Shown here: positions 49,192 through 55,109 of the stretch, piece by piece | Layout of the letters: every line of letters begins with the position of its first letter | Position numbering within the stretch: the stretch's first letter is position 1 | Assembly (NCBI GenBank): GCA_965140785.1 | Contig: OZ223496.1 | Location: 1-64,000 of the forward strand | Direction of reading: 5' to 3' | Source of the DNA: an uncultured Ruficoccus sp. | Lineage (GTDB): Bacteria; Verrucomicrobiota; Verrucomicrobiia; Opitutales; Cerasicoccaceae | Length of the DNA stretch: 64,000 nt | Program-made: the position numbers and the translations under genes | The notes under the pieces: model-generated | What the model was told of the DNA's origin: nothing | Databases searched by the model: none | What the model saw: the letters and a program-made list of their open reading frames with translations, nothing else

Positions 49192-51236
49192 ATGAAAGCC
49201 ATCACCCTGCCGCTCTTAGCTGCCGCACTGCCCCTAACCCTCCAGGCTGAATCCGAAACAGACTCAGTCTGCGCAACAGAACCCACTGCCGATGAGTCCT
49301 ATTATGAGGACCACTCCTCGCTCGGGTACACGCTGCCGAACCTTCCACTTGAGTGGTACAGTGAACCCTTTGACCTAAAAGGCAAATGGCTCCTGCTGGC
49401 CTATACCTCGGAGTGCTGCGGCGGGCTCCATTACCCAGACACACAGGACATCGAACGGCTCAGTGAGATTTACACGCACTACGGGAAGCAGATCAACGTT
49501 CTCGCCCTCACCTGGGCAAGTGCCGAGCGGTTAAAGATCGTCACCCAAGGCATTGAGATGACTTATCCGCTCGCCTACGACCCCGATCACCGCTGGGGCA
49601 AAGTGTTGGGCAACGCCTACGAGCCGAGCTATCTGCTGTTCAATCCAGAGGGCCAATGCGTCTGGGAAGGAAATCTAGCTCAGATCAGCGATGCGTTGTT
49701 GGCTGCGCTGCCCCAAGGAAGAACCGCTCTGTACGAAATGGGGTTTTATCTGGCGAACGACGATGGCAATCAACTTTTGCTGCCAATCCTTACTGACAAC
49801 CCGATGGCCGGTTCCTTCTGGAGTATAGATTCCGTGGAAAATGCTCATTACCTATACGACGCCGGAGTTTTTGATGAGGCCGAGAGCGGCAAAGATGCCA
49901 CGCTCAAAAGGTTTCTGGAGGCCTTTCCGCCTTCGCTCTACAATGTGTATATTGATGACTCTTGGATCAACACCGTCGGAACAGAAGGGGAAGACACGCT
50001 CCGCATGCGTGCCCGGTATTTCCCAATCAGCCGCACCGATAAATCCATTACTCTGCTTTTACGTAGCGACAAACTTTCCGGAAAACCGGGGAAAACTCAA
50101 ATACGGTTATTGGACATTTTATCCGGAAGCTGAAAAGGCGATTATTTATAGTAAAAAATTTATGGCATGCGCCGGAAACCCTTCCCAGCATCTGGCACCG
50201 CACCCCCAGCGACGCCTATACGGAGGCAGAGGAACGACTGGATTTAGCGGAAGGGTACGACGGGCCCTTCGACGAGTATTCACGCCTGGGGCACACACTG
50301 CCGGACGCATCGTTGGAGTGGCTCAGCGAACCGACTGAGTTGAAAAACAAATGGCTGCTGCTGGAGTTCTGGGGCACCTATTGCGGCCCCTGCATCCGGC
50401 AGATTCCCCGTCTCAACGAAATCCACCAGATGGTTGGGCCAGACCTCGTCGTGGTCGGCATCACTTCAGAGGCTCCGGCCAAAGTCGTCGCCCGCATGCG
50501 CAAATCCCACATCGCCTATCCCGTGGCCAACGATCCCAACGGAAAGTGGCAGGAGCATTTCAACATTTTCGGCGTCCCCTCCACCATTCTCGTCAATCCT
50601 CAAGGTCAATGCGTGTGGGAGGGCGAGCTGGATGCATTACCCGATGTCCTGCTGAACGCGTTCGGTAAAGGCGACGATGCGCTCAAGGCCGCCGGTTACC
50701 GTCTCGTCACCAACAAGGACGACGGCCTCCAGCTCATGCTCCCCATCATCGAAGCTGATCCGCTGGAGGGCACCTGCTGGCGTTTCAACAGCCATGAATC
50801 CATTCGCTTCGCCGACAAGATGGGCTGGCTTAAGCAGATGGGCTGCGACGACACCTTTGTCGAACGCTTCTGCCAACACCCCGAAAGCATCCTGTACTGG
50901 CGCTTCGCGAACGGACGTGTCCAGAGATTGGGCGAGGGTTCCGGCCTTGGCTACACCATCGACAGCGAATACTTTCTGTTCGAGAGAAATGGCAATACCT
51001 TTACCATCGTTTTCCGGGGCCCGACAAACGAACGCGACAGCCTGCGCTACAAGTATCTGACCATCACGCAAACGCCGGAGTACACGGCCACCTATCCCCA
51101 ATGGGTACGCCGCGACGGCCCTCCCCGCGCACTTTGGCACTCCATCGCCCCCGAAGAATATACCGCCGCCGAAGAACGATTAGCCTCGGCGACCTCCACC
51201 GTGGACAATGAACGAACGTTGCCCCCATCCCGATAA
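49192..51236 (+). pseudogene. Tandem two-repeat TlpA/thioredoxin-like secreted protein, split by two frameshifts
   Basis: ORFs 49192-50133 and 50313-51236 are homologous (LEWYSEPFDLKGKWLLL / LEWLSEPTELKNKWLLL); they join into one frame if one A is removed at about 50072 and one at about 50155; WGTYCGPC in repeat 2. Confidence 0.75.
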
Positions 51237-51330: not shown

Positions 51331-52699
51331 TGTCTGAGCCTCCCGAAATTGGTCCATTGCTGATGAGATGATTTTCTGTCAAATGACAGATAATCGAGTA
51401 TGAAACGAGGAAGACGAAGCACCGAAGAGATCATCCGCATCCTTCGCGCGAGCGAAGGTCTAAACGTCGAGGATGCCTGCCGCGAGCACGGTATCAGCCC
51501 GGCGACGTACCATCGCTACAAGCGCCAGTATGGGGGGGTTGGATGTGAAGGAGGCACAGCGGCTACGGGACTTGGAGAAGGAGTTCACGAGCGTAGCGAG
51601 AAGGCCTGACACTCCGAGCTAAAGAAGCTGCTTGCCGACCATTTGCTCAAGACCAAAGCCCTTGAGATTGCGTTGGAAAAAAACGCCTGAGCCCGGATCA
51701 CCAGCGCGGGGCGGCCGCCAAGGTCGTCGCCGCGCTTCGGTGCTCCGGGAGACAAGTGTGCCGGTGGCTGGGCATTCATCGCTCAACCTATCGTTACCAA
51801 CCCAAGCCGCTACCCGAGAAGAAGCGGCTGCTGGAAGCCGAGATCGTGAAGATGAGCCAGCGTCATCCGACCTTGGGCTATCGCAAGATCACGCGCAAGC
51901 TTCGCGAGGCCGGTTGGAATGTGGGCAAGAAACTGGTGCAACGCGTACGTCGGCAGGAGGGCCTGCAAGTGCCTGCTCCTAAACCACGCACACGTCGTCA
52001 GGGCTTGTCGACAGGATTGCCGCAGCAGGCCACGCCCCGTAACCACGTCTGGGCCTGGGACTTGTTTTCTTGTGATCATGTCGCGCTTCGCGCTCGGTAG
52101 TCTCCGACCATACTCAGCGTGGCGGCGCCCTGCGCTGTTTTAACCTCATTGATGAGTTTACGCGTGAGTGTCATTGCATCCATGCGGATCGCTCCATCAA
52201 GGCCGATGATGTGCTCGCCGTGCTCAAGCAGGCGATCACCACCCACGGAGTTCCCGCGTATATCCGCTCCGATAACGGGCCCGAGTTTATCGCCAGACCG
52301 ATCAAGCGCTGGCTGGCCGACAATCAGATCAAGACCCTCTACATTGATCCGGGTTGCCCCTGGCACAATGGCGGACGGTGCGACCAGCCCGCCCGGCTAC
52401 GTCGAGTCCTTCAACAGCCGCTTCAGGCAGGAGTGCCTGGATCGTGAACTGCTCTACACCCTCAGCGAATCACGCGTCGTCTTTAATGATTGGCGCAGCT
52501 ACTACAACAACGAACGCCCTCATCGCTCTCTGGGCTTGCTCACACCGACCCAGTTTGCCAAACAACTAAACTCAGGTTCCGGCTCCGTTCGGCCTACGGC
52601 CTCTCTACGCCAGAACCTCCAAAAACAAACAAACCAACAACACAACCACCAGACCGGAAATCTCTCATAACATCCGGACCAAAACGTGGGACTCAGACA
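51331..52699 (+). mobile_element. IS3-family insertion sequence, inactivated
   Basis: IRs TGTCTGAGCCTCCCGAAATTGGTCC / TGTCTGAGTCCCACGTTTTGGTCC; orfA HTH from 51400; A7 -1 slippage site at 51677-51683; orfB WAWD, IRSDNGPEFI, VESFN, YNNERPHRSLG; no clear target duplication. Confidence 0.92.
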
Positions 52700-52704
52700 C
52701 AAGC

Positions 52705-52884
52705 TCAACCTGGCTCAGGTATAGCGTGGCCGCCGGACGGGAAATCCCTAAAATTTTCCTTGAACAGGATGGCGTCCCTCGTGTTGGCCAGTCGGTCGAT
52801 ACTGGGCGTTCGCACGGCCGGATTTTCGCAGCAGCCGACAAAGCTATCGTGCATTATATCGGGGTTGACGAAAATGAAGTTCAT
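52705..52884 (-). pseudogene. N-terminal remnant of a sulfatase
   Basis: MNFIFVNPD...VGCCENPAVRTPSIDRLA resembles a sulfatase N-terminus; ATGA-coupled to the PL8 stop; ends next to the IS. Confidence 0.6.
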
Positions 52885-55109
52885 TGTTGTTTCTCCGCTG
52901 TGAAAAAGGAGCCGACTTGCACCGTTGATCCGGCGTACGGAGCCTGCGGCAGTTCGACCGTTCGCTTGAGTGTCTCGTTCTGCCATGTCATTTCAAGAAT
53001 CAGTCGCTTTTGCCGCTGCGAGGGATCGGCAACCCAGAGGTGAACGTTCTCGTTTTCATCAATCCTGGCGATGATCGCGCAAGCGATATCGGTTTTAATC
53101 CTGAGCGGAAAATCAGCCGCTTCCAGCTCCCCAGGCTCGTAGAAGGCGGCACCCACCCACCGCTTCTGGGAGAGCCATACCGCCTGCAAGGCGGGTGTGT
53201 TAGCGATGATGTCCACTTGCTCGTCAAAAAGGTTTTCGGCTGCGGTGCCCGGCCCCGAGGGACGGACGGCGTAGGCATACTGACTGTTACCAGGGTGGGA
53301 GCCGTGATCGATCCAGAGCGTGAATATTTCGCCCGAAACAGGTGTATCGCTCTGGACCTGGGAAATCTCCCGCCAACTCGAGGAGCGCTGCTCACTGAAA
53401 TAACGAACCGGGTCATTCTCCGGTAACAAGCTATAGCTCAAGGCACCCTGCTCGATGACACCGCCTTGCGGCAGAGTCACTGGCTCTGCGGCCTCCACCG
53501 TTTCCGTGTCGACGGTTACGTCCCCGTTGGCGTAGCACTGGTTGATCGTCGTGTAGACGGGATCATCTCCGGTATAGTTGATACCGGTGCCGAGTGCAAC
53601 CATGAGCCCGTCCGGAAAAAACCAGCCTTTGCGGGCGGACAGATCTCCGCGCTTGAAATCCGCTGCGAAGAGGCCGCTCTCGCCAGTGCTAACACCCCCG
53701 ACGAAGCGGGTTTTGCCCTTGCGTGAGATCACTTTGTTATCCAGCGGAAGTTTCCCGTCCTGAACAATCGTTGTGCCCGGCAACTGCTGCCAGTTCCAAA
53801 GGGGGGCGATACTGACGCTGTTCGTGAAGTACTCCGTGCCGTCGCGCATAAGCATTGTCATGCCGTCTCCCAGGTGGTGTCCCTTGGTGCTCTCCCCGTT
53901 GTGAGCCTTGTCGGTGCTCAGGGTACGGCTGGAGTTCAGGCGGACGGAGGCGTACCAGTCCTGCTCGCGGTTCACCATGATATCGCTGACCCAAAACATG
54001 CGGTTGCCGACCAGCGCGGGCTCGTTGGGCGAGGCTTCGTTGTTCATGCGTTTCCTAAAGTCCACCAGCTCGCCGTGCCGGGGAGTCTCCACCTGGAGCA
54101 TGAAGTTCAGGGGGGCGTCCATCAGGGCCGCTCCGGTATTGCGAGCGATGGAACGTCCCCGCGCATTCAGGTCCACCGCGCCGCCCCAGATCAGCCATTG
54201 CTGGTGGTTGAGCATATAGTCCTCGATCAGGCTCACGCTGGCGTCTGGAAAAGCGTACCTCGTCCCCTGCGTCCAGACGAACCACATCCCGGACCATCGC
54301 GGAAGGCCCTGTCCATAGGAAAGGGTCGCGAGCAGAGGGCCGTGCATCTGGAAACTGTAATCGTGTTGCACCCCTTCCCTGGTCGTCATCCGCATTTCCT
54401 GACTAAAAGTTCGTAGCATGTAGTTAACCAGATCCAGATCATCAAGGAGCAGGCCGAGCATAATCATCGCCTCACACCGCCATATCTTGTTCTGGGAGGT
54501 GTTCATGACCCTTTCCACCCGGAAGTCGGCGGGCCGAACCATCTCCTCGACCAGGCGGATGTCCTCGGCAGTCAGGCCGTCCTGTAGAATAAGTGCCACC
54601 GCCGCCGTATCCCGGGGCTGCTTGATTAGCTTCACATACTTATGCTGGATATCGGGGTGTTTGCGAATCCAGTACCGCAGAGCGCGCAGGCTGGCCTCCC
54701 GTAGCGCGCGTGCTTTTTCCTCGTCCCCCTGCCGACGTGCTGCCAGGGAGGAGACGGCCATCTTGCGCACGCGCTCCATGTGCACGGCTGATTGGCGGAC
54801 GGCTGTGGGGGAAAATGTGTAGTCATTCCAGTTACCTTGCTCGTCCAGGCGGGAGGCCAGGTCCACCGCAGTTGCGATGTCGGCTTCCCGCTCGACCAAG
54901 GTGTTCAGGATGCGATTGATAACCACCTGCTCGTCGTCGAGGTTTTTGCCTGAACCCCGTATCGAATAATTCGGTACAGGGGCGGAATTTTCCGTTGGTG
55001 GTGATGTCGTCTCCGTGACTGAGCGCTCCTGCTTGCATCCGAACAGAAGGCAAAAAGCGAGTAAGATCAGAATTCCTGGCACGTTTGCGCCTATGGTATG
55101 TTTATTCAT
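52881..55109 (-). CDS. Polysaccharide lyase family 8 (chondroitin AC/hyaluronate lyase-like) lipoprotein
   Basis: Lipobox LLFGC; EGVQHDYSFQMHG...SYG, NGES..GHHLGDG, WNWQQLPGTT, FVGGVS, IDHG. Confidence 0.88.
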   Translation of the reverse strand: MNKHTIGANVPGILILLAFCLLFGCKQERSVTETTSPPTENSAPVPNYSIRGSGKNLDDEQVVINRILNTLVEREADIATAVDLASRLDEQGNWNDYTFSPTAVRQSAVHMERVRKMAVSSLAARRQGDEEKARALREASLRALRYWIRKHPDIQHKYVKLIKQPRDTAAVALILQDGLTAEDIRLVEEMVRPADFRVERVMNTSQNKIWRCEAMIMLGLLLDDLDLVNYMLRTFSQEMRMTTREGVQHDYSFQMHGPLLATLSYGQGLPRWSGMWFVWTQGTRYAFPDASVSLIEDYMLNHQQWLIWGGAVDLNARGRSIARNTGAALMDAPLNFMLQVETPRHGELVDFRKRMNNEASPNEPALVGNRMFWVSDIMVNREQDWYASVRLNSSRTLSTDKAHNGESTKGHHLGDGMTMLMRDGTEYFTNSVSIAPLWNWQQLPGTTIVQDGKLPLDNKVISRKGKTRFVGGVSTGESGLFAADFKRGDLSARKGWFFPDGLMVALGTGINYTGDDPVYTTINQCYANGDVTVDTETVEAAEPVTLPQGGVIEQGALSYSLLPENDPVRYFSEQRSSSWREISQVQSDTPVSGEIFTLWIDHGSHPGNSQYAYAVRPSGPGTAAENLFDEQVDIIANTPALQAVWLSQKRWVGAAFYEPGELEAADFPLRIKTDIACAIIARIDENENVHLWVADPSQRQKRLILEMTWQNETLKRTVELPQAPYAGSTVQVGSFFTAEKQQ

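Follow-up and report, generated by a model that had tools for sequence, protein, structure and literature searches.

The 64,000-nucleotide stretch analysed here (the window; contig OZ223496.1, positions 1 to 64,000) hosts an insertion sequence (IS) of the IS3 family whose transposase genes are interrupted by three short inserts. These inserts, and the small dispersed elements to which they belong, are the subject of this work. The IS carries an OrfA with a helix-turn-helix (HTH) and an OrfB that follows an A7 run in the -1 frame and contains an rve DDE core, and it has the TG..CA ends of its family; the domains HTH_Tnp_1, HTH_21, rve and rve_3 were matched on pieces of its open reading frames (ORFs). 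The A7 run at 51677-51683 is presumably the -1 frameshift site into OrfB, judging from the usual A6G/A7 motif of IS3 elements. The genome is represented by a single incomplete assembly of 4.36 Mb in 50 contigs, which is 90.85% complete. The features of the locus are as follows.

51331..52700, + strand: IS3-family insertion sequence, with inverted repeats at 51331-51355 and 52676-52700 and TG...CA ends
51400..51690, + strand: OrfA, HTH_Tnp_1 and leucine-zipper region, broken by an extra G and by insert 1; stop codon TGA at 51688-51690
51441..51458, + strand: native coding hairpin with 7-nt arms and a 4-nt loop, from a six-copy IS alignment
51532..51538, + strand: fourth lesion, a run of 7 G where the C10 and C26 paralogues and the X3 contig (see below) have 6; a +1 frameshift
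51584..51611, + strand: insert 1, a 28-nt copy of element T8 replacing the AA between GAG and CTCC (LEKE-N-SEL), net +26
51691..52062, + strand: OrfB part 1, HTH_21 region up to WAWD, frame 0
52063..52099, - strand: insert 2, a 37-nt copy of element T3 replacing 2 nt directly after the D of WAWD, net +35
52100..52369, + strand: OrfB part 2, rve core with IRSDNGPEF up to PWHNG, frame 2 (rve E-value 8.5e-17)
52370..52394, + strand: insert 3, a 25-nt copy of element T5, a pure insertion between NG and YVES
52395..52670, + strand: OrfB part 3, rve_3 C-terminal part, frame 0; stop codon at 52668-52670

The boundaries of the inserts were set against insert-free paralogues, in the six-copy alignment, and against a contig from sequencing run X3. 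Diverged paralogues of the IS lie at C10:628114 (87% identical), C48:54672 (85%) and C26:99531 (72%). Insert 1 is missing from the C26 copy, insert 2 from the C10 and C26 copies and insert 3 from all three. The X3 contig (4029 nt, from a wastewater metagenome of another study) covers 51331-52598 with 26 other letters over about 1230 nt, i.e. about 98% identity, and is free of all four lesions: it lacks one G at 51532, 26 nt at 51584-51610, 36 nt at 52064-52099, where it has a C instead, and 25 nt at 52370. The inserts are therefore real, derived, and young relative to about 2% of substitution. Two of the placements allow another reading. Insert 2 may be taken as 36 nt at 52064-52099 in place of a single C, and insert 3 can be shifted by 3 nt (52370-52394 to 52373-52397), as GGC stands on both sides.

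That three inserts interrupt conserved IS3 motifs had been claimed in a preliminary description of this locus, and both the paralogues and the X3 contig, a homologue of the kind it proposed for comparison, bear this out; its coordinates were right to within 1-3 nt. Its lengths of 36 and 25 nt for inserts 2 and 3 hold too, whereas insert 1, given as 27 nt, is a 28-nt element with a net gain of 26 nt, and the extra G had been missed. Insert 1 begins with TTCACGA and ends with CA. Insert 2 is antisense to the transposase, begins with TACCGAGC, contains a GCGC-GAA-GCGC hairpin and likewise has a CA end. The motifs pointed out earlier, GCGTAGC in insert 1 and GCTTCGC in insert 2, are both there. 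Insert 3 is a GC-rich imperfect palindrome with 7-nt arms, one mismatch and a variable loop. Inserts 2 and 3 adjoin what we take to be the catalytic D and E, from their position in the motifs (W..D; N..ES) and from what is known of IS3 transposases.

The IS is present in three near-identical full copies, in the window, at C25:73206-74575 (+) and at C49:932-2304 (-). Their flanks differ and their inserts are the same; with three laden copies, the IS must have moved or been copied after it was hit. None of the three has a target duplication, and a search for the empty site in four congeners gave no DNA match to the left flank in any of them. The loop of the native hairpin (51448-51451) is the reverse complement of that in the otherwise identical C25:73206 copy, and it is 1 nt longer in the C49 copy. 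Such changes are the mark of a template switch or flip that took place very recently. In the window the IS is neighboured by a 307-amino-acid thioredoxin-fold-like ORF (50313-51236) and a convergent 742-amino-acid ORF (52881-55109), possibly a polysaccharide lyase by its sequence, and neither of these is interrupted.

Could the inserts be errors of assembly or sequencing? Repeats always carry this risk, and three extra single bases in the C49 copy may be such errors. Against it, separately assembled contigs of run X1 (51429-51771 and 52075-52458) and run X2 (51429-51826) match the inserts letter for letter, which is evidence at the contig level from two runs that share an organism label and a study, and one of which may have supplied the assembly itself. 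Run X1 contains the flank of the second IS copy as well, and homologous elements occur in the genomes of two other species. We give an artefact practically no credence.

What makes the inserts of wider interest is that each of them belongs to a small dispersed family, as emerged from a search of the rest of the genome that had likewise been proposed. Two further inserts, of 41 nt and 48 nt, lie at other sites in diverged paralogues of the window IS, and both of these recur at many loci. Our census combined motif searches, profile searches and a scan of all paralogue alignments for gaps of 15-70 nt. It yields 51 copies of nine types, of which 38 form what we call the TACCGA class (T1-T4 and T7-T9).

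TACCGA class: T1, 9 copies and 1 partial copy; T2, 6; T3, 5; T4, 5; T7, 5; T8, 5; T9, 2
T5: 7 copies, including window insert 3; 3 in the window IS family and 4 at the equivalent NG/Y site of an IS481-like family, ISx
T6: 6 copies

The copies of a type are 84-100% identical overall and 92-100% within the TACCGA class, while their 90-nt flanks are just 50-66% alike. For example, the T8 copies in the window IS and at C48:103738, in another IS3, agree in all 28 positions, with flanks matching at 58/90 and 59/90. T3 matches a copy at C48:103423 in 35/37 positions, the loop N being among the differences, with flanks at 45/90 and 60/90. Both of these C48 copies lie at sites homologous to those of the window inserts. 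T1 agrees in 40-41/43 positions between ISx and two IS3 lineages (flanks 50-55/90), and T2 in 46/50 (flanks 53-59/90). Several types occupy more than one kind of site: T1 is found at YLVE-E-NR of ISx and at FTR-E-C of two IS3 lineages, T2 at RWKR-E-LG and FR.-E-CLN, and T7 at WRW-K-YNN and after IRSD. T5 is found at the NG/Y motif in both the window IS and ISx. Judged by these comparisons, inserts 1-3 are shown to be discrete units with fixed ends that recur in diverged and non-homologous contexts.

This has consequences for how the inserts were first understood. The preliminary description held that they do not look like ordinary decay, and the recurrence of the 28-nt and 37-nt inserts (at 100% and 95%) in a different IS3 with flanks of 50-66% supports it. 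Its suggestion of a tiny mobile hairpin fits as well, with related elements at unrelated sites. It had also seen partial copies or complements of the flanks in each insert; the comparisons show shared units with fixed ends and not copies of nearby sequence.

The TACCGA-class elements have a common build. From 5′ to 3′ they consist of a T(A)CCGA(G/A) head, a stem hairpin, a (C/T)GACA box, a GCGNAGC mini-hairpin and a CA end. The sequence of the hairpin stems varies by type, the pairing is kept and the loop is usually GNA. These GNA loops are found on the TACCGA strand without exception, with an N that varies freely among copies. The GCGNAGC motif occurs in T8, in T3 (on the minus strand, inside a longer stem) and once or twice in T1, T2, T4 and T7. 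Insertions and deletions in the loops alter the length of the elements between copies. Mini-hairpins of the C-GNA-G or GCGNAGC type are described as unusually stable DNA (PMC13037366, PMC3201870).

The manner of insertion is equally regular. We compared filled and empty sites for ISx (against three element-free copies, one of them in congener G003), for relics of an IS3 family that we call F1 (against 9-12 element-free paralogues) and for the window IS (against X3). In all eight element/site combinations of the TACCGA class, a purine dinucleotide (AG, AA or GA) preceded by G or C was replaced by an element that starts with T and finishes with CA, and none of the filled/empty pairs has a target duplication. 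T5 and T6 are plain insertions. The antisense T3 follows the same two-purine replacement rule, which argues for an event at the DNA level and not for a coding device.

One rival explanation sees the inserts as repair scars, each arising de novo at a break in the IS, whether through snap-back synthesis, template switching or end-joining filler. The inverted hairpin loop at 51448-51451 relative to C25:73206 indicates that events of the template-switch type do happen here, and a target loss as small as 2 nt is typical of break repair. As an origin of the insert sequences, which the preliminary description had proposed, it is contradicted by the same sequences with the same ends at many loci. The inserts are not reverse-complement copies of adjacent DNA, and the assembly, 90.85% complete, yielded no Ku gene. 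We consider this explanation extremely unlikely.

Where are the elements found? All 51 copies lie in transposase DNA, namely in F1 (14 loci), ISx (12 loci), the window IS family (6 loci) or single IS3 relics. The gap scan and the profile search of the genome found no copy between genes or in a non-transposase gene, and an nhmmer search for more copies gave no other significant match, with all non-IS matches at E > 1. In the gap scan such inserts were seen in three IS families only, together about 1.2% of the genome. Other repeat families consist of ordinary genes, for instance transporters and hydrolases, and have none; the remaining entries of the scan were short indels in a 240-bp repeat and about a dozen unrelated small indels. 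The elements are unevenly spread: a relic at C48:103170-103850 hosts five of them and most F1 copies host none. In what appear to be IS graveyards (C48:99.7-104 kb, C4:165-170 kb and C39:118-123 kb), active F1 copies lie 0.5-3 kb from relics with several micro-elements.

The 240-bp repeat resembles a REPIN or a miniature inverted-repeat transposable element (MITE) and occurs at C25:192850-193120 and about ten other loci; its copies differ by a 16-nt piece that contains the reverse complement of GCGNAGC. No link of this repeat to T5 or T6 emerged: its score is equalled by 43-58 of 1000 shuffles in the case of T5 and by more than 700 of 1000 in that of T6.

The distribution among lineages is narrow. 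A scan with the element pattern gave 17 matches in this genome and none in the reversed control. Among relatives there was a single match, in one of four congeners, and none in 36 others. Decayed IS3 relics hold a T3 copy in congener G003 (C5:3363, 2 mismatches) and a T8-like one in G001; none of the four congeners yielded T5. Seven scattered matches in a species collection are likely due to chance, as are 11 of the 13 matches in metagenomes. The other two are convincing look-alikes (L073 1501-1538 (-) and L062 273-310 (+)), with the same head, a different paired stem and the same 3′ box. Some 190 nt downstream of a tRNA-Ser gene, the 3′ end of that gene is partly duplicated, as is typical of an integration-site remnant, and the look-alikes are inserted in the T-loop portion of this duplicate. 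The pattern scans thus point to elements confined to this genus of Verrucomicrobiota, apart from the two metagenome look-alikes.

The elements have consequences for the ISs that host them. Between its paired lesions, the window IS loses the conserved protein frame and acquires stop codons. Two elements in one gene also recombine and delete the DNA between them, to judge from hybrid junctions such as YLVE-T1/T4-CLNKMIFF and FHRWKR-T2-CLNREWFYTL and from short IS derivatives at C26:99297, C26:178767, C10:469905, C39:139356 and C48:103207, in each of which N- and C-terminal transposase parts are joined via one micro-element. The C10 paralogue looks like a mosaic: its 5′ third, which includes insert 1, matches the window IS at about 98% and the remainder at about 85%.

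ISx offers a different picture, and it raises the question of whether the elements are tolerated or even used. Could they be recoding or regulatory cassettes, either gaps bypassed by the ribosome as in byp elements or in-frame peptides, so that laden ISs still make transposase? An element-free ISx copy has an intact 372-amino-acid ORF, and the laden copy at C26:132516 is otherwise just as intact, with no stop and no frameshift in the 362 codons outside its elements. The ratio dN/dS is 0.035-0.109 for all ISx pairs at dS 0.40-0.80. For a laden pair it is 0.08 at dS 0.44, yet their T1 elements are identical at 43/43 positions. Low dN/dS together with identical elements implies that the elements were either gained recently and repeatedly at the same sites or else conserved. 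The reading frame is kept, with no stop, through T4 (+36), T5 in ISx (+24) and T2 in the C26 IS (+48). Almost every site type has the sense orientation, the lesion lengths in the window add to multiples of three (1+26; 35+25), and the laden window IS is itself kept in three near-identical copies, which would all suit this explanation.

A number of facts speak against it. T1, T7 and T8 contain in-frame stops, the antisense T3 obeys the insertion rule, the frame is lost between the paired lesions of the window and loop indels change the length of the elements. T8 and T2 are without matching take-off and landing codons, as read by eye, and T1 and T4 alone could offer such a pair, CCG/CCA. Intact element-free copies of ISx and F1 coexist with the laden ones and could supply transposase in trans. 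We therefore hold recoding to be very unlikely. A protein search with the peptides of the in-frame T5 and T4 gave 13 candidates, none of which scored, and the RNA run X10, which holds only 85-95% relatives, gives no sign that this IS is transcribed. A synteny test for the age of the laden ISx of G003 yielded only IS-derived matches. The orientation of elements relative to GC skew stands at 22 to 11, a figure confounded by later movement of the host ISs.

In our opinion the inserts are probably copies of a genus-specific, non-coding and non-autonomous mobile DNA of 24-50 nt, whose insertion is a DNA-level event that breaks transposase genes of the rve type (IS3 and IS481-like). The strand-specific C-GNA-G loops suggest that the elements pass through a folded, single-stranded DNA form during movement. 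They would be moved in trans, most likely by the active F1 IS3 transposase or else by another enzyme. The window IS may have been disabled recently and have later spread to its three sites via transposase supplied in trans or by recombination.

An IS3-type transposase is our preferred guess for the mobilising enzyme. F1 comprises about ten full copies that are 98-100% identical (e.g. C10:74251-75565 and C4:136605-137919), in two left-end variants. The first 16 nt of T1 resemble the left end of one variant, with 2/1000 shuffles as good, and the first 16 nt of T2 that of the other variant (8/1000), a 10-nt gap being allowed in both cases; the last 16 nt of T7 resemble the F1 right end (7-9/1000). 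These figures are nominal, from 48 comparisons in total. Nothing at or below 20/1000 was seen between the element ends and the other two IS families. A missing target duplication, which is unusual for the IS3 family, is no special trait of the laden IS, as nine of ten F1 copies are likewise without one.

The search for an enzyme or guide also took in the reverse transcriptase (RT) and HUH/RAYT genes that the preliminary description had, among others, recommended looking for. Both kinds exist, one retron-like RT and two Y1/HUH genes, and neither has a sequence link to the elements. The two identical 308-amino-acid Y1/HUH ORFs (C10:480074-481079 and C43:224653-225658) belong to a two-copy, 1-kb element of their own; no micro-element motif was found in their flanks, and the terminal hairpins are unrelated. 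This Y1_Tnp element (IS200/RAYT-like) has inverted repeats with short direct repeats beside them, and its C10 copy appears to have inserted beside a tyrosine-integrase gene fragment. The single 331-amino-acid RT (C39:273644-274639), with a long perfect hairpin in the 170-nt spacer upstream, is probably a retron. It was rejected as the mover, since that hairpin is unrelated to the elements. Ku, Piwi and TnpB-type domains had no match in the incomplete assembly, and no CRISPR-like array turned up in a simple scan for 20-mers that recur three times.

Several points weigh against the mobile-element explanation. Under the standard nearest-neighbour DNA model, which gives no bonus for C-GNA-G mini-hairpins, the three window inserts fold no better than shuffles (z of +0.99, -1.16 and -0.36; 165, 23 and 60 of 200 shuffles fold equally well). 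Of the earlier claim that each insert forms a hairpin, the GCGNAGC motifs stand, and the folding gains no support from this model. No enzyme is tied to the elements, and the resemblance to F1 ends fails correction for the 48 comparisons. The master copy or the enzyme gene could lie outside the assembled part of the genome. To our knowledge, replacement of two target nucleotides is not known for DDE, HUH, serine or tyrosine enzymes. The ISx tree is star-like; the maximum-likelihood tree needs four changes, and a single clade of laden copies has p-AU 0.058, so that independent gains in ISx are not proven. Finally, the target motif is far too weak to account for all copies lying in IS genes, so that a key part of the mechanism is missing.

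It is this last point that leads to another possibility, namely a dedicated anti-IS process, either a host device or a hyperparasite of ISs, that writes cassettes folding as single-stranded DNA into rve genes, often by the catalytic D or E, and replaces two bases. If so, a nearly information-free target motif together with 51 of 51 copies in IS genes would imply recognition beyond the local sequence. A transposition intermediate, a transposase acting near its own gene, or a guide might provide it. The restriction to transposase DNA fits action against transposons, and no guiding or inserting machinery was found in the searches above. We regard such a process as doubtful.

The same restriction would be explained in another way if one-off insertion mutations were spread among IS copies by gene conversion or homologous recombination alone, without any transposition. 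ISs are the only abundant homologous repeats here, which would account both for the confinement to ISs and for the preference for motif sites. In favour of this, T8, T3 and T5 recur at homologous motif sites, and the C10 mosaic carries insert 1 within its near-identical 5′ third. The elements do recombine with one another, and the shape of the ISx tree leaves room for conversion. Yet T1, T2 and T7 each occupy two unrelated sites. The flanks are 50-66% alike, with differences beginning within 6 nt of the element, which is too little homology for conversion of the RecA type, and the look-alikes sit inside a partial tRNA-Ser 3′ end in two metagenome contigs. Conversion alone seems unlikely to us.

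If the inserts do move, few known mobile units are as small (28-50 nt), and we know of no other that lives only in the transposase genes of other mobile elements. A limited full-text search of the literature found no published description of such transposase-confined micro-elements. They disable ISs, often by the catalytic residues, and seed internal deletions that leave short relics, and this would be an unnoticed route of IS decay and control. Their signature, in which a purine dinucleotide is replaced without any duplication, the 3′ end is CA and the GNA mini-hairpins keep to one strand, provides a testable handle on what may be a new mode of strand transfer. Were the dedicated process true, both the insertion chemistry and the targeting principle would be unlike those known from any transposase or recombinase family. 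There is also a practical side, as gene callers that meet such inserts divide the transposase or put it in the wrong frame. How common they are could be gauged by applying the paralogue-gap scan across genomes.

How do the micro-elements relate to known systems? Among the closest are the REP, BIME and REPIN sequences moved by RAYTs (PMC3333891, PMC3116915). They too are dispersed, non-coding imperfect palindromes of 20-50 nt, lineage-specific, with exchangeable paired stems and strand-specific features. A Y1_Tnp gene is also present in this genome. The micro-elements differ in several ways. They have no GTAG head and begin with (G/C)TACCGA or TTCACGA; there are about 50 copies and not hundreds, all 51 in transposase DNA and none extragenic; and two target nucleotides are replaced. 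The RAYT gene of REP systems is single-copy and flanked by the same repeats, whereas here there are two identical Y1 ORFs with unrelated terminal repeats.

With MITEs the elements share that they are non-autonomous, presumably moved in trans and prone to promote deletions; a weak and nominal resemblance of their ends to those of the resident F1 IS3 came out in 3 of 48 comparisons. MITEs measure about 80-400 bp, so that the micro-elements, at 28-50 nt, are several-fold smaller; they also lack terminal inverted repeats and target-site duplications. The PATEs of IS200/IS605, which move as single strands, are similar in having two small hairpins near the ends, strand-specific loops that suggest a single-stranded DNA form, and no target duplication. 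They differ in that the elements here have no fixed 4-5-nt upstream target, only a preceding G or C, and lose a purine dinucleotide, and no cognate TnpA with matching ends was found in this genome. The very small dispersed repeats (SDR) of cyanobacteria (Elhai et al. 2008, Genome Res 18:1484) are reportedly 21-27-nt hairpins that inserted as mobile units, among other places into other mobile elements. They are from another phylum and have other sequences, and no restriction to transposase genes is known for them.

Short GC-rich hairpin inserts in coding sequence, some of them in frame, are also known from T4 gene 60, the byps of Magnusiomyces (27-55 nt), the GC clusters of yeast mitochondria and the Rickettsia palindromic elements. 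The elements described here differ from bypass and Rickettsia elements: no take-off/landing codon pairs were found, T3 is antisense, and the hosts are broken transposase genes and not housekeeping genes. Quasi-palindrome and template-switch mutations are unlike them too, as the inserts are common to distant loci, and only the loop inversion at 51448-51451 fits that type of event. Like homing group I introns and inteins, T8, T3 and T5 return to one position within a conserved motif of diverged homologues, next to the catalytic D and E; the elements have no ribozyme, endonuclease ORF or splicing, and some types use unrelated sites. On the sequence evidence we file the micro-elements as putative miniature non-autonomous mobile DNA, unusual in their size, their residence in transposase genes only and their insertion signature.

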